From a virus (Duplodnaviria > Heunggongvirae > Uroviricota > Caudoviricetes), in the IMG/VR virus record IMGVR_UViG_2617270991_000003: 23,312 nt of DNA. The stretch is one strand, 5' to 3'. The notes below the pieces were generated by a model that was not told where the DNA came from, searched no databases, and was given only the letters and a program-made list of their open reading frames with translations. Positions 3,091 to 21,229 of the stretch are shown piece after piece (within the stretch, counting starts at the first letter, position 1; each line of letters begins with the position of its first letter). The translations under genes and the position numbers were made by a program.

Positions 3091-3257
3091 AATGGCAGCC
3101 TCTTGGTTGAGTATTAATAACTCACCACCAAGGTTTTCCACGACCATAAGGGTGGTGAGGCGTACAGGGGTGGAAATACCGGTCAACCAAGAATCCGGCC
3201 AGCCTTGCAGCTGCCCTGCACGCCCCACCATAATCTGAATGTGGCTGTGCTTGACGC

Positions 3258-3282
3258 ATAAAAAAACCGCCTGAGCGCGGTT
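3258..3282 (-). terminator. Rho-independent terminator (leftward transcription) just upstream of rha
   Basis: Minus strand reads AACCGCGCTCAGGCGG followed by TTTTTTTA: short GC stem (CCGC/GCGG) plus a 7-nt U-run. Confidence 0.5.
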
Positions 3283-3564
3283 ATGCGCTTGATTGAATTC
3301 CGGGTTTCCACGCCCGGCACCCGTTTTATGAGGTGCAGGAGCACTATAATTCCACCCGTTCTGGTTTTCAATAGCTACATTCAACATTTTCTCTTACCTT
3401 TCATCACCGAAGTGAACTTTGTTGATGCGGTGCCTGGTGCCTCCAGGTGACGTTAACCAGTTAACAATTAACGCCGGATACAGAGAATCCACCCATAACA
3501 CTGTTTTTGGTTTTAACTGTTCCGCGTGCGCTTAGCCGCATTCACCGCATCACAAAATTCACTT

Positions 3565-3622
3565 TAAAAAGGGTGGCAGAGCAGTCACGGAGTAGAACTG
3601 ATGCCACCAAAGACTACACATG
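3565..3622 (-). ncRNA. dicF: DicF-like small RNA (3' hairpin and terminator conserved)
   Basis: Minus strand TTTGGTGGCATCAGTTCTACTCCGTGACTGCTCTGCCACCCTTTTT closely matches my recollection of E. coli DicF 3' two-thirds (..TTTGGCGGTATCAGTTTTACTCCGTGACTGCTCTGCCGCCCTTTTT), with compensatory GGCGG/GCCGCC to GGTGG/GCCACC changes preserving the stem; sits between ydfC-like and dicB-like genes as in Qin. Confidence 0.6.
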
Positions 3623-3944: not shown

Positions 3945-4223
3945 ATGGATAAAAAGCAAATTGAGGCCCTGCAATCTATTATTGAAAAACAAGATGAAGC
4001 TATCAGGATTCTTTCATATCGCACTGATATGATACTAAATATGCTTTCTGCATTAACGGCTGCGCTTGGTGGTACAAAAACAAACGTATACCGCGAAGTT
4101 GTTATTCAACAGATAGATAAATTTGAAAAAACCATACCAGGTATTAATGCTCATCTTGCAGAACAAGAGAAAGACCATGCTCTTATGGCAATTTCTTCAG
4201 TAGCTCTCCCGAAAGTTGAGTAG
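3945..4223 (+). CDS. Hypothetical protein (92 aa), convergent with and overlapping the 3' end of the 133-aa minus-strand gene
   Basis: ATG at 3945 preceded by AGGAGG with 6-nt spacer; clean ORF MDKKQIEALQSIIEKQDEAIRIL...; AT-rich codon usage unlike neighbours; no recognisable domain. Confidence 0.5.
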   Translation: MDKKQIEALQSIIEKQDEAIRILSYRTDMILNMLSALTAALGGTKTNVYREVVIQQIDKFEKTIPGINAHLAEQEKDHALMAISSVALPKVE

Positions 4224-12706: not shown

Positions 12707-12882
12707 TGCAGCGGGTGCTTGAGGCTATCTGTCTCAGGCATGAACACCAAAAGGCAGATAGAGAAAAGCCCCAGTTAACATTACGCGTCCGGCAAGACGC
12801 TTAACATTAATCTGAGGCCATATCTATGCTCTACACACGTAGGTTAGCCTCTTACGTGCCGAAAGGCAAGGAGAAGCAGGCT

Positions 12883-13038
12883 ATGAAGCAGCAAAAGGCG
12901 ATGCTAATCGCCCTGATCGTCATCTGTTTAACCGTCATTGTGACGGCACTGGTAACGAGGAAAGACCTCTGCGAGGTACGAATCCGAACCGGCCAGACGG
13001 AGGTCGCTGTCTTCACAGCTTACGAACCTGAGGAGTAA
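12883..13038 (+). CDS. hokD: Hok/Gef-family type I toxin (51 aa), HokD/RelF-like
   Basis: MKQQKAMLIALIVICLTVIVTALVTRKDLCEVRIRTGQTEVAVFTAYEPEE has the Hok family signature (TM helix, LTRK.LCE.R); track ORF 12826-13038 is an in-frame upstream extension (mok-like reading frame). Confidence 0.75.
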   Translation: MKQQKAMLIALIVICLTVIVTALVTRKDLCEVRIRTGQTEVAVFTAYEPEE

Positions 13039-16661: not shown

Positions 16662-17036
16662 ATGCTCATAGATTTGGTTTTACCTTACCCGCCGACGGTG
16701 AACACTTACTGGCGACGCCGTGGCAGCACATATTTTATCTCGGAGGAGGGAAAGCGTTATCGCCGGGCTGTGGCGCTTATTGTTCGCCAGCAGCGGCTGA
16801 AATTAAGCCTGTCCGGAAGGCTGGCGATAAAGGTGATTGCAGAGCCACCGGATAAGCGTCGTCGCGACCTGGACAATATCCTGAAAGCACCGCTGGATGC
16901 GCTGACGCATGCGGGAGTGTTAATGGACGATGAGCAGTTTGATGAAATCAATATCGTTCGTGGTCAGCCAGTATCTGGTGGACGTATGGGGGTGAAGATT
17001 TACCCCATAATGCATGAAGAGCAGGTCAAAAAATGA
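16662..17036 (+). CDS. rusA: RusA-family Holliday junction resolvase (124 aa)
   Basis: MLIDLVLPYPPTVNTYWRRRG...RRRDLDNILKAPLDALTHAGVLMDDEQ signature; AAGAGGTG RBS. Confidence 0.8.
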   Translation: MLIDLVLPYPPTVNTYWRRRGSTYFISEEGKRYRRAVALIVRQQRLKLSLSGRLAIKVIAEPPDKRRRDLDNILKAPLDALTHAGVLMDDEQFDEINIVRGQPVSGGRMGVKIYPIMHEEQVKK

Positions 17037-17854
17037 AACTGGAAGATTTACCGAAATACTACTCCCCAAAATCCCCTGGCCTGACCGATGCATCGGCCTC
17101 AACGTCAAAAGATGCGCTGAGTATCACTGATGTGATGGCCGCGCAGGGCATGACACAGAATCGGGCTGAGATGGGGTTTTCTGCGTTCCTGGGGAAAATG
17201 GGCATCAGTATGAATGACAGGGCGCGGGCAACAGAATTACTGGCAGATTATGCACTCAGTCGGTGCGATCGTGTGGCGGCGTTGAGAAAACTTCCGGCAG
17301 AAATAAAACCGGTAGTGATGCGCATTATGGCTTCGTATGCGTTTGAAGATTATGCCCGTAGCGCGGCGAGCAAAAAACAGTGCCCCTGCTGTCACGGAAA
17401 AAAATTTATTGAAAGCGAGGTTTTTACAAACAAGATCCAGTATCCGGATGGTAAGCCACCAGTGTGGGCAAAGTGCACAAAAGGCGTGTATCCGTCTTAC
17501 TGGGAAGAATGGAAAAAAGTCAGGGAGGTGGTAAAAGTTGCCTGTCCGGAGTGTGGCGGAAAGGGTGAGGTTTCCACCGCCTGTAAGGATTGCCGTGGGC
17601 GTGGTGTCGCCATTCATCGTGAAGAGTCGGTAAAACGTGGTATGCCTGTTATCAGAGATTGCCAGCGTTGTGGTGGTCGTGGCTGTGAAAGGCTGCCATC
17701 AACGGAGGCATTTAATGCCATATGCAAAGTGACGAGTGCTATCACGCTTGATACGTGGAAAAAATCAGTGAAACGCTTTTACGATACGTTGGTGGTTCGG
17801 TTTGACATTGAAGAGGCATGGGCGGAGCGGCAGTTAAAGAGGGTAACGCGATAG
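17033..17854 (+). CDS. Putative late-gene antiterminator (Q-like, QuuQ-type position) with DnaJ-type CxxCxGxG zinc-finger repeats (273 aa)
   Basis: Track ORF; ATGA coupling to rusA; CPECGGKG, CKDCRGRG, CQRCGGRG repeats; positioned before a promoter/terminator pair and the tRNA/lysis region; function inferred from synteny. Confidence 0.45.
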   Translation: MKLEDLPKYYSPKSPGLTDASASTSKDALSITDVMAAQGMTQNRAEMGFSAFLGKMGISMNDRARATELLADYALSRCDRVAALRKLPAEIKPVVMRIMASYAFEDYARSAASKKQCPCCHGKKFIESEVFTNKIQYPDGKPPVWAKCTKGVYPSYWEEWKKVREVVKVACPECGGKGEVSTACKDCRGRGVAIHREESVKRGMPVIRDCQRCGGRGCERLPSTEAFNAICKVTSAITLDTWKKSVKRFYDTLVVRFDIEEAWAERQLKRVTR

Positions 17855-17859
17855 TGTTG

Positions 17860-17887
17860 TTGATTTTTCCCGAATCTGTGGTAAATT
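17860..17887 (+). promoter_or_regulatory. Candidate late promoter (pR'-like) just downstream of the Q-like gene
   Basis: TTGATT, 16-nt spacer, TAAATT. Confidence 0.3.
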
Positions 17888-17936
17888 TGCTCTAACGATG
17901 GGCGTTTTATGCCTGACGTTAGAAGATTTTTTACAC

Positions 17937-17958
17937 CCCGCCGCCTGGCGGGTTTTTT
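17937..17958 (+). terminator. Rho-independent terminator (tR'-like), about 65 nt downstream of the candidate late promoter
   Basis: CCCGCC-GCCT-GGCGGG hairpin followed by TTTTTT. Confidence 0.55.
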
Positions 17959-18080
17959 ATGACTGAAATCGCGTCAGTACAGTAAACGCGCTGGTGGCGG
18001 TGAATACCTGTCTTTCAGCTTGCTGGCTTTTTCGACAAGAGTTATTGGTGTGTCACGTTAACCGGAAAAGGGAAAAAGAC

Positions 18081-18278
18081 ATGCTAAAACAGCAGGATAT
18101 GACAGAAACCGCCAGAGTGGTGTTTAATGAATTAAGCGTTACCGAACCGGCGACAGTCGGGGAGATAGCGCAGAATACTTACCTTTCACGCGAACGCTGC
18201 CAGTTAATACTGACCCAGCTGGTTATGGCGGGTCTGGCAGACTATCAGTTCGGTTGTTACAGACGCCTTCCGCAGTGA
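18081..18278 (+). CDS. Small hypothetical protein (65 aa), possible DNA-binding
   Basis: ATG 18081 within track ORF 17994-18278; MLKQQDMTETARVVFNELSVTEPATVGEIAQNTYLSRERCQLIL. Confidence 0.4.
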   Translation: MLKQQDMTETARVVFNELSVTEPATVGEIAQNTYLSRERCQLILTQLVMAGLADYQFGCYRRLPQ

Positions 18279-18290
18279 AGGCTTTTTTAT
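18265..18290 (+). terminator. Rho-independent terminator overlapping the stop of the small ORF
   Basis: GCCTTC-CGCAGT-GAAGGC hairpin followed by TTTTTTATTT. Confidence 0.5.
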
Positions 18291-18428
18291 TTGTGGTAAA
18301 TGGGCGGCTGGTGGGGGTTAGGGGCACCCACCAGCCATCTGCTCATGCGTTGGGTTCACAAGCAAACCTCAGGCCCACTGCTTTGCGCAAAAGCAGAATG
18401 AGCCTATCAGAGACAGGCTTAATGATCC

Positions 18429-19478
18429 ATGCTTAATACTGTAAAAATATCCAGTTGTGAGTTAATCAACGCCGACTGCCTGGAATTTATCCGGTCGTTA
18501 CCCGAAAATTCTGTTGACCTGATAGTCACGGACCCGCCGTACTTTAAAGTGAAGACTGAGGGATGGGATAACCAGTGGAAGGGCGACGATGATTACCTGA
18601 AGTGGCTGGACCAGTGTCTGGCGCAGTTCTGGCGGGGGCTGAAACCTGTCGGAAGTCTTTACCTGTTCTGTGGTCATCGCCTGGCATCTGATATCGAAAT
18701 CATGATGCGTGAACGCTTCAGTGTGCTGAACCATATTATCTGGGCGAAGCCGTCCGGACGCTGGAACGGATGCAACAAGGAAAGCCTGCGGGCGTATTTC
18801 CCCGCCACAGAGCGCATTCTGTTCGCGGAACATTATCAGGGGCCGTATCGTCCGAAAGATGCCGGGTATGCGGCGAAGGGCAGTGCACTGAAACAGCATG
18901 TGATGGCCCCGCTGATTTCTTACTTTCGTGATGCGCGCGCGGCCCTGGGGATAACGGCAAAACAGATTGCAGATGCCACAGGAAAGAAAAACATGGTGTC
19001 GCACTGGTTCAGTGCCAGTCAGTGGCAGCTACCGAACGAAAGCGATTATCTGAAATTACAGTCGCTGTTTGCCCGGGTGGCAGAAGAGAAACATCAGCGC
19101 GGTGAACTGGAAAAGCCCCACCACCAGCTGGTGGATACGTATACGTCACTGAACCGGCAGTATGTGGAGCTGCAGAGTGAATATAAGCATCTGCGGCGGT
19201 ATTTTGGTGTGACGGCGCAGGTGCCGTACACGGATGTGTGGACACATAAACCGGTGCAGTTCTATCCCGGGAAACATCCGTGCGAAAAACCGGCAGAAAT
19301 GCTGCAGCAGATAATCAGCGCAAGCAGTCGTCCGGGTGACCTGGTTGCAGATTTTTTTATGGGCTCAGGTTCAACGGTAAAAGCTGCACTGGCGCTCGGG
19401 CGTCGTGCGATTGGCGTTGAACTGGAGACCGGACGTTTTGAGCAGACAGTCAGGGAAGTTCAGGATTTAATCGTTTGA
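18429..19478 (+). CDS. Orphan DNA methyltransferase (amino-methyltransferase, DPPY motif near N-terminus, FxGxG near C-terminus)
   Basis: Track ORF; IVTDPPYF catalytic motif and C-terminal FFMGSGST SAM-binding motif; no adjacent restriction endonuclease. Confidence 0.75.
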   Translation: MLNTVKISSCELINADCLEFIRSLPENSVDLIVTDPPYFKVKTEGWDNQWKGDDDYLKWLDQCLAQFWRGLKPVGSLYLFCGHRLASDIEIMMRERFSVLNHIIWAKPSGRWNGCNKESLRAYFPATERILFAEHYQGPYRPKDAGYAAKGSALKQHVMAPLISYFRDARAALGITAKQIADATGKKNMVSHWFSASQWQLPNESDYLKLQSLFARVAEEKHQRGELEKPHHQLVDTYTSLNRQYVELQSEYKHLRRYFGVTAQVPYTDVWTHKPVQFYPGKHPCEKPAEMLQQIISASSRPGDLVADFFMGSGSTVKAALALGRRAIGVELETGRFEQTVREVQDLIV

Positions 19479-19527
19479 AACGGATGAGATTGCAGAATTA
19501 ATTACGCACCATTATTATTCTGCTTCC

Positions 19528-19603
19528 GGCCCTTTAGCTCAGTGGTGAGAGCGAGCGACTCATAATCGCCAGGTCGCTGGTTCAAATCCAGCAAGGGCCA
19601 CCA
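19528..19603 (+). tRNA. tRNA with anticodon CAT (Met-type; in phage context probably tRNA-Ile2 read as AUA after lysidine modification)
   Basis: Hand-folded cloverleaf: acceptor GGCCCTT/AAGGGCC, D-arm GCTC..GAGC, anticodon loop CTCATAA, T-arm GCTGG-TTCAAAT-CCAGC, 3' CCA; 76 nt. Confidence 0.8.
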
Positions 19604-19610
19604 TCACATA

Positions 19611-19687
19611 CCGCCATTAGCTCATCGGGATAGAGCGCCAGCCTTCGAAGCTGGCTGCGCGGGGTTCAAGTCCCCGATGGCGGTCCA
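19611..19687 (+). tRNA. tRNA-Arg, anticodon TCG
   Basis: Hand-folded cloverleaf: acceptor CCGCCAT/ATGGCGG, D-arm GCTC..GAGC, anticodon stem CCAGC/GCTGG with loop CTTCGAA, T-arm CGGGG-TTCAAGT-CCCCG, 3' CCA; 77 nt. Confidence 0.7.
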
Positions 19688-19700
19688 TTATCTGCATCAT

Positions 19701-19745
19701 GCGTTGTTAGCTCAGCCGGACAGAGCAATTGCCTTCTAAGCAGCT
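19701..19745 (+). pseudogene. Truncated tRNA (5' half only: acceptor 5' strand, D-arm, anticodon arm with loop CTTCTAA, anticodon TCT = Arg)
   Basis: GCGTTGT-TA-GCTC-AGCCGGACA-GAGC then anticodon arm; no T-arm or matching acceptor 3' strand (ACAACGC) found downstream; followed by a G/T-rich tract. Confidence 0.4.
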
Positions 19746-19893
19746 GTGGTTGCACTCCTGTTGTTTCTGGTGGTGATGGTGGACTTCAGCAGCCGGATAA
19801 TGTCGGTGCTGTCTGATGGTGTTTTGGTGGCGGGTGTGTGGTTGTTGCTTTCCCGTTGCTGAAAAAGAAAGCATCAGGCGATTAGCAGGGTAT

Positions 19894-20140
19894 CAGTTAC
19901 CCGTTGAAATTTTTAAATACCTCACAATTCCACAGCTTGATGATTGTCTGGCTGCCGGAGAATTTGTTAAAAATTACATCGCATGGTGAATCCCCCTCAG
20001 CGGCGGGGCATCTGGCAAAGTGTATGATCCAGAGAACATGCAAATTCAGTAGACAGGCTGAATTTACCGGGAGGCCCCTGGCACCATGCGACAGACAGAA
20101 ATTAGGCTATACTTCAGCCCCTCTCCGGAGGGGCTTTTCT
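19894..20140 (+). repeat. Structured repeat, copy 1 (about 247 bp), ending in an intrinsic terminator; candidate sRNA or processing/termination module
   Basis: Conserved blocks shared with copy 2: TTGTCTGGC, GTTTGTTAAAAA, GCATGGTGAATCCCCCT, CTGAATT(T/C)ACCGGGAGGC.CC.GGCACCATGC, AGCCCCTCTCCGGAGGGGCT; GCATGGTG and CACCATGC can pair as a long-range helix. Confidence 0.5.
20116..20140 (+). terminator. Rho-independent terminator at the end of repeat copy 1
   Basis: AGCCCCTC-TCCG-GAGGGGCT perfect 8-bp hairpin followed by TTTCT. Confidence 0.55.
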
Positions 20141-20329
20141 GTGCAGGATGTGTCACAGTTTCCTGAATTCTGAGTACTGTCCTGTTACTCAGGGTGCTAT
20201 ATTTTCTGACGTGATGAAAGTCTGCCGGAAGGCGGAACGTATCGGAAATGACCCAGTAGAGAAAACGTTGACTCAGATACCGATGCTGAGTTACCGGGAA
20301 ACCGGCATCACATGACCGCTATCCTTCCA

Positions 20330-20352
20330 GGCTCGCTCCGGCGGGCCTTTTT
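20330..20352 (+). terminator. Rho-independent terminator between the two repeat copies
   Basis: GGCTCGC-TCCG-GCGGGCC hairpin (one G-U pair) followed by TTTTT; same TCCG loop as the repeat terminators. Confidence 0.5.
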
Positions 20353-20363
20353 ACTGCAGAAAA

Positions 20364-20605
20364 CAGTTTTCCCGTAAAATGCCACGTTGCTCATAATTCA
20401 GGCTGGCGATTATTGTCTGGCCGGCGGGAAGTTTGTTAAAAAATTTCGCATGGTGAATCCCCCTGTGCGGAGGGGTAATCAGCGAGTAGGTATATGGGAT
20501 AATCGCGGATTCAGGTGCTGGTACTGAATTCACCGGGAGGCACCCGGCACCATGCAATGGCACATAGCGCCACTCTCCAGCCCCTCTCCGGAGGGGCTGT
20601 TTATA
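20364..20605 (+). repeat. Structured repeat, copy 2 (about 242 bp), ending in an intrinsic terminator
   Basis: Aligns with copy 1 across 5' and 3' conserved blocks, with a divergent middle segment. Confidence 0.5.
20579..20605 (+). terminator. Rho-independent terminator at the end of repeat copy 2
   Basis: AGCCCCTC-TCCG-GAGGGGCT hairpin followed by GTTTATATT. Confidence 0.5.
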
Positions 20606-20633
20606 TTGATTTTGTCAGATGTGAGTAAACTGC

Positions 20634-20969
20634 TTATGGACTTTGTTGTTTTAGCCCATAAGGACATATTTGCAGAGTGCAACGGTTATTAAAGCATTCA
20701 TTCAATACGTTATCTGTATTTGTAGGGCATTCCTGGCTGTTTTTGATTAAATTCCATAATGTTTTATTGAATGGTACTACGTTGTAAATGGTTACAGGTA
20801 GCACTTTGTTATTGAGCATGATGCCTGTGTGAGTCAGTGTAAATATACTTTCAGGAGGTAAGAAAGCATCCGATTGATACCAGATTATTAATTTTATTTT
20901 ACTCCATATGACTGAAAAAGATATTCCGCATGATGGCTGGATAACTGTATCAATCACAATCCACTTCAT
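20634..20969 (-). CDS. Possible hypothetical protein (111 aa) on the minus strand within an AT-rich island
   Basis: Track ORF; AGGAAA 6 nt upstream of ATG 20969; unusual Trp/Cys/Ile-rich composition; could equally be a chance ORF in AT-rich DNA. Confidence 0.25.
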
Positions 20970-21229
20970 TTAGTTTCCTTGTTTATGCCTTGCTGGTGAT
21001 GTTCTGAAAAGTATAAATGATATTTTTGATTGTAAACCATAGAGCAGAATTATTTTTCTGATGTTGTTTATTGTTTATTTAAATGCAGGGTGGTTTATAT
21101 CTCGTCTTGTAGTTTATCCATGCATATCTGCTTGATGATGAGGTTTTTATTTAAGGTATGGTTTTGTGTTTTTTCTGTATTACATGTCAGGTATTTTAAA
21201 GAATCATTTTTCAGATGGTGGAAAGAACC

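Follow-up and report, generated by a model that had tools for sequence, protein, structure and literature searches.

The end of the tRNA gene cluster in the DNA analyzed here, a whole stretch of 23,312 nucleotides (IMG/VR record IMGVR_UViG_2617270991_000003) referred to below as the window, is very probably a lambdoid-prophage deletion scar, in which a single microhomology-free loss of ~654 nt joined nucleotide 42 of the tRNA gene argO to codon 8 of the small gene tciB, whose remnant has been decaying since. An orphan tRNA half and the tract of odd composition behind it are on this reading two ends of one deletion, which matters little beyond annotation. Its site is the moron (“cargo”) slot that follows the late-gene antiterminator Q and a DNA methylase, and the ancestral layout there was ileZ, argN, argO, a rho-independent terminator, tciA (TerB-like), tciB and the small RNA STnc100. 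One illegitimate, one-step deletion would have destroyed argO and removed the terminator, tciA and the start codon of tciB together with its translational coupling; with the initiation signals lost, the remnant would then have decayed, by a -1 frameshift here and by a Gly to Asp change in a sister lineage. The scar is built of known components which are partly annotated in databases, though as a protein gene. No description of an argO/tciB scar was found in the literature, where the matches were almost entirely unrelated (Trypanosoma cruzi genotypes, antibiotic-resistance-gene tools). Coordinates of all features are collected in Table 1.

Table 1. Position, strand and supporting evidence of the features found in the window.
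Feature	Position	Strand	Evidence
C4 antisense RNA	3148-3235	-	Rfam match
isrK RNA	3260-3336	-	Rfam match
DicF RNA	3571-3622	-	Rfam match
sok antitoxin RNA (hok/sok-type)	12713-12888	+	Rfam match
Intact ileZ-type tRNA, anticodon CAT	19528..19603	+	ARAGORN; Rfam tRNA, 72.5 bits
Intact argN-type tRNA-Arg, anticodon TCG	19611..19687	+	ARAGORN; Rfam tRNA, 58.4 bits; aligned to 933W argN
5' 42 nt of argO (tRNA-Arg, anticodon TCT)	19701..19742	+	Aligned with complete argO genes (933W, IMG/VR loci)
Probable deletion junction AAGCA/GCTGTGG	19742..19743	+	933W homology stops at 19742, JLK-2012 homology from 19743
tciB (DUF3927) remnant, the G/T-rich tract, codons 8-54 and original stop TAG 19883-19885	19743..19885	+	Pfam; identity to JLK-2012
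1-nt (G) deletion, GGGTGT-GTGG	~19837..19839	+	Alignment to JLK-2012
STnc100 small RNA copy with terminator, conserved right flank of cargo slot, outside the scar	19951..20144	+	Rfam RF02076, 138 bits
Second STnc100 copy	20420-20608	+	Rfam RF02076, 132.5 bits
111-aa ORF; near-identical prophages have “anti-adapter protein IraM” annotated at this site	20634-20969	-	No Pfam match here
622-aa protein (NanS-p/YjhS-like), downstream of the scar	21215-23083	+	DUF1737, SASA esterase and DUF6645 domains

The original prediction, made from the letters of the sequence, described two intact tRNAs with anticodons CAT and TCG followed by a third one cut short, and this is borne out by ARAGORN, Rfam and alignment to argO of phage 933W. 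The tRNA finders, which had been proposed as a check, gave no complete third tRNA: ARAGORN called two tRNAs in total in the 23.3-kb window, and the same two, with no third, scored above the threshold of the Rfam tRNA model. The first of them is identical in alignment to 933W ileZ and is annotated as tRNA-Ile in 933W and RefSeq. Positions 19701-19742 correspond to nucleotides 1-42 of argO, i.e. the acceptor 5' strand, the D arm and the anticodon loop CTTCTAA; the stub also keeps three of the five nucleotides of the anticodon-stem 3' strand, while the T arm and the acceptor 3' strand are missing. A permissive Rfam scan of 19480-19960 returned a partial tRNA match at 19710-19744 (model positions 10-42 of 71), which at 14.2 bits lies below the gathering score of 29. 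The complete cloverleaf that RF00005 and ARAGORN look for (both acceptor strands and the D, anticodon and T arms) is thus not formed by the third tRNA, and the 3' half of argO, with its T arm and acceptor strand, is absent from the entire window even when up to three mismatches are allowed. A 42-nt stub without acceptor and T arms should not be recognized by RNase P and processed as a tRNA. Other changes in the same cluster were observed in related prophages. In several of them (L001 at ~4120-4205, L006 at 2903-2995 and L036) argN is degenerate: the acceptor-stem ends GCCATTAGCT...CCCGATGGCGGTCCA are kept, but unrelated sequence has taken the place of the interior, and no tRNA is called there by ARAGORN or by Rfam. 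A tRNA gene of this cluster has thus decayed a second time, independently of argO. In one locus (L101) the whole ileZ-argN-argO triplet is duplicated.

Behind the stub, the 120 nt from 19743 to 19862 (A10 C20 G45 T45) are 75% G+T, the highest value of all 120-nt intervals in the 23.3-kb sequence (mean 0.52, sd 0.055), so the G/T skew noticed earlier is real. The start of the feature at 19701 also stands; its end, placed originally at 19870, has been moved to 19885, the original-frame stop of the gene remnant found in the tract. The tract matches the Pfam family DUF3927 (PF13064) with E=5.8e-11 and 42.6 bits, above the cutoff of 25, and is 94% identical in nucleotides (blastn) to tciB of JLK-2012; its more distant relatives by tblastn and blastn are tciB of phages 434 and P1. 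In near-identical prophages GenBank and RefSeq label the stretch “TciB” or “DUF3927 family protein”. One strain with this prophage is NCCP15648, whose sequence agrees with the window to 99% over 17000-22877. The match covers only positions 11-39 of the 53 in the profile, compared with 4-50 of 53 and 71.8 bits for the intact JLK-2012 TciB, a protein of 54 aa (VTVKMRLAVVALLLFLVVMVDFSSRIMSVLADGVLVAGVVVVAFPLLKKKASGD). On the plus strand the remnant holds an ORF of 38 aa at 19746-19862, starting with GTG at 19746 (MVALLLFLVVMVDFSSRIMSVLSDGVLVAGVWLLLSRC), and a shorter one of 28 aa from ATG at 19776; besides the 38-aa form, the peptide MVDFSSRIMSVLSDGVLVAGVWLLLSRC would be a possible product of the remnant. 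It falls short of a full-length DUF3927 protein, which has two hydrophobic segments, a basic C-terminus and its own start. It also lacks the linked upstream tciA (TerB-like) with the overlapping stop/start GTGA, the junction lying directly upstream of the remnant and tciA being absent from the window.

The composition of the tract follows from this identity. Intact tciB genes are 58-67% G+T (0.58-0.67) and their products contain 45-53% of V/L/F/G/W, while the remnant, in which mostly the hydrophobic core is retained, has 75% and 59%, respectively, and neighboring genes have 49-55% G+T. The skew arises because TciB has a high content of Val, Leu, Phe, Gly and Trp, which are encoded by GTN, CTG/TTG, TTY, GGN and TGG. 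The tract is a coding remnant of a gene for a small hydrophobic membrane protein, tciB (54 codons when intact), and its skew is codon composition. The earlier suggestion that it could be a regulatory RNA segment finds no support: within 19743-19885 no Rfam family was matched, even at E<=10, and the minimum free energy of 19701-19870 does not differ from that of dinucleotide shuffles (z of -0.34 on the plus and +0.02 on the minus strand). A structured or regulatory RNA in the tract was rejected on these grounds.

A recombination or deletion breakpoint inside the tRNA had also been proposed, and alignments place it exactly. Megablast against phage genomes retrieved 294 records, mostly Stx phages, whose similarity reached only to query position 263, which is window position 19742; this left flank is 94-96% identical in nucleotides to Stx phages as far as nucleotide 42 of argO. 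In pairwise blastn, 19742 is the last position with homology to 933W and 19743 the first with homology to JLK-2012 tciB, and the alignments concur. The comparison with an intact argO from an Stx phage, named in the original prediction as the way of locating the break, thus puts it after argO nucleotide 42. Microhomology at the deletion endpoints was looked for in the parental sequences and none was found, and the junction carries no site-specific signature.

To reconstruct the parental layout, we used 80 IMG/VR loci encoding TciA upstream of tciB. TciA of JLK-2012 matches Pfam TerB (E=2.9e-16) and, to our knowledge, the function of P1 tciA, tciB and tciC is known only through homology to TerB. 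Immediately upstream of tciA lies ileZ-argN-argO in 37 of the 80 loci and ileZ-argO without argN in another 24, so that argO-tciA-tciB on one molecule is the commonest context of tciA (61/80). Both flanks of the junction are collinear on one molecule in 63 of the loci; their spacing is 651-654 nt in 43 and ~1250 nt in most others. In the ~1250-nt variants (L055, 1825-2311), argO and tciA are separated by two extra small ORFs of 74 and 69 aa. Compared with the parental layout, the window lacks 654 nt, i.e. nucleotides 43-77 of argO, its rho-independent terminator (annotated at the equivalent place in 933W), all of tciA, and codons 1-7 of tciB (VTVKMRL). In this layout the GTG start of tciB overlaps the stop of tciA (GTGA), which implies translational coupling. 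Since the collinear layout is common (63/80), a one-step deletion suffices and is more parsimonious than recombination between phages; we infer that the event was intramolecular.

Recombination between phages would mean that an illegitimate event joined a 933W-like segment (methylase-ileZ-argN-argO) to a JLK-2012-like one (tciA-tciB-STnc100-nanS), making the junction a true boundary of module exchange. Such an origin would account for a left flank 94-96% identical to Stx phages next to a right flank whose best match is JLK-2012, a phage with Asn, Thr and Gly tRNAs and not ileZ, argN and argO. The locus does carry alternative cargo, and the best collinear parents are ~86-95% identical to the flanks of the window, the exact parent sequence not having been recovered. 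However, argO, tciA and tciB already stand in this order in most tciA loci, the same holds for both flanks, and the junction has neither microhomology nor a site-specific signature, for which reasons we regard an exchange between phages as quite unlikely. The idea that the break marks the boundary of cargo exchange is consequently correct only in part: the locus is a cargo slot with alternative contents, and the break itself is best explained by an internal deletion and not as the edge of a swapped cassette.

The tciB remnant carries further lesions beyond the loss of codons 1-7. Loss of one G causes a -1 frameshift, after which the ORF ends at TGA 19860-19862 (...VWLLLSRC*), while the ancestral C-terminus, VVVAFPLLKKKASG(D*), can still be read, in the alternative frame, as far as TAG 19883-19885; reinsertion of the G restores the C-terminus of JLK-2012. 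The frameshift is present in 30 of 34 junction-bearing sequences examined. The remaining four, a sister lineage, are without it and have GGT>GAT, which replaces Gly by Asp in S-D-G, a motif conserved among the TciB proteins of P1, 434 and JLK-2012. Two different disabling changes in two sub-lineages, though they are only two events, fit relaxed constraint after loss of the start codon. The copies bearing the junction differ at only 1-2 sites, and the remnant is not preceded by a good, suitably spaced Shine-Dalgarno sequence. It is probably a decaying, non-functional pseudogene, and the 28-aa “DUF3927 family protein” given by RefSeq at this locus is the decayed remnant. Some residual expression of the 38-aa or 28-aa ORF may occur, as the ORF is open and annotated in RefSeq.

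It could be asked whether the deletion created something useful. The terminator-like site at 20116-20135 on the plus strand, which belongs to STnc100, is the next strong one downstream of the stub. Loss of the argO terminator probably lets transcripts that start at the tRNA promoter or at pR' continue across the stub toward it. A prophage with this scar no longer has the argO terminator, and would also be without tRNA-Arg(UCU) and TciA. It is very unlikely that the deletion rewired expression, by letting a constitutive tRNA promoter drive transcription across the stub into the first STnc100 copy or by yielding a micro-protein of 28-38 aa or a stable tRNA 5' half; if any of these were true, a scar present in 6% of complete E. 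coli genomes would have a selectable function.

We consider it highly improbable that the remnant is functional, whether as a membrane micro-protein of 28-38 aa, as a leader or spacer coupling the tRNA operon to STnc100, or as a stable 5' tRNA-half fragment or decoy. An open, RefSeq-annotated ORF which still scores above the DUF3927 gathering threshold, the spread of the scar through 321 genomes, and the fact that the first downstream plus-strand terminator-like site with a GC-rich stem is that of STnc100 all speak for a function. Yet the GTG start overlapping the tciA stop is lost with no good Shine-Dalgarno sequence in its place, the conserved C-terminus is removed by the frameshift, the S-D-G motif is mutated in the sister lineage, and as an RNA the segment has no Rfam match and folds no better than shuffles. 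The 100% identity of the copies is put down to recent shared ancestry and not to demonstrated selection, and tciA, tciB and tciC of P1 were non-essential in a CRISPRi screen (PMC10695390). Finally, a complete third tRNA of unconventional form (intron-containing, split or permuted) or a truncation produced by assembly, for which the intact 5' half and nothing more could be cited, can practically be dismissed: the former was ruled out by the lack of any ARAGORN or Rfam call and of the argO 3' half anywhere in the window and is at odds with the recognizable protein-gene remnant (DUF3927) past the break, and the latter with the occurrence of the same junction in hundreds of independent complete genomes.

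The deletion scar is widespread. A query spanning the junction reached a coverage of 80% or more in 321 (6%) of the 5426 complete E. coli genomes, and the exact junction 22-mer occurs in 30 IMG/VR contigs; among the one-per-species GTDB representatives it was found only in the type strain of Escherichia albertii. The junction is identical in 34 of 34 sequences, while the tRNA region upstream of it is variable, with argN intact or degenerate and with different spacers. An identical junction beside a variable upstream region points to one origin of the scar, after which recombination disseminated it, carried on prophage modules, within E. coli and as far as E. albertii. The junction is for this reason a handy single-origin marker for tracing the prophage module in these two species.

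On the right, the scar is followed by two STnc100 copies in tandem, which are ~73% identical to each other and each of which ends in a CCCCTCTCCGGAGGGG-T terminator. In 933W one STnc100 copy lies after stx2B, and next to it comes AsxR, encoded on the other strand. STnc100 follows stx2B in 933W, tciB in JLK-2012 and a tciB remnant or stub in E. coli PigCaeca_2 (L006), and it seems to be the conserved right-hand boundary of the stx/tciAB cargo slot, which has the tRNA cluster as its left flank. Between tRNAs and STnc100 the alternative cargo is stx2AB in 933W, tciAB in JLK-2012, a 117-aa ORF in PigCaeca_2 and the extra small ORFs in L055. In PigCaeca_2 (L006, 3081-3711) an intact argO is followed by this unannotated ORF (L006, 3191-3544), which has no Pfam match, and by a tciB stub cut at a different point, homology resuming at window position 19787. 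The differently cut stub suggests that the 3' end of tciB survives repeatedly as the right-hand scar of cargo turnover. The interval from tRNAs to STnc100, which is the slot carrying stx in Stx phages, thus owes its turnover to deletion and not only to the exchange of cassettes. Elsewhere in the window further Rfam matches were observed (C4, isrK, DicF and sok), all of them small RNAs typical of lambdoid prophages.

Compared with known systems, the left side of the scar is a degraded member of the ileZ-argN-argO cluster of Stx phages (933W, VT2-Sakai), for which a generic gene map, Q-methylase-tRNA-stx-yjhS, is available (PMC3491183). As in that cluster, the tRNA genes come after Q and the DNA methylase and include intact copies of ileZ and argN; order and identity agree through ileZ and argN and as far as nucleotide 42 of argO. 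The differences are an incomplete third gene, the lack of stx genes behind it and the loss of the argO terminator, which is annotated in 933W. The right side is related to the tciA-tciB(-tciC) genes of P1, JLK-2012 and 434, in which TciB is the DUF3927 protein, most closely to those of JLK-2012, and the tci genes of P1 and JLK-2012 adjoin phage tRNA genes as they do here. In contrast to these systems, tciA is absent here and tciB, which has lost its coupled start along with codons 1-7 and carries a -1 frameshift, is a pseudogene remnant. The locus as a whole corresponds to the lambdoid moron slot between the Q-tRNA region and nanS-p and the lysis genes and is likewise bounded on the right by a copy of STnc100, but here the slot has been essentially emptied through deletion and holds scars only.
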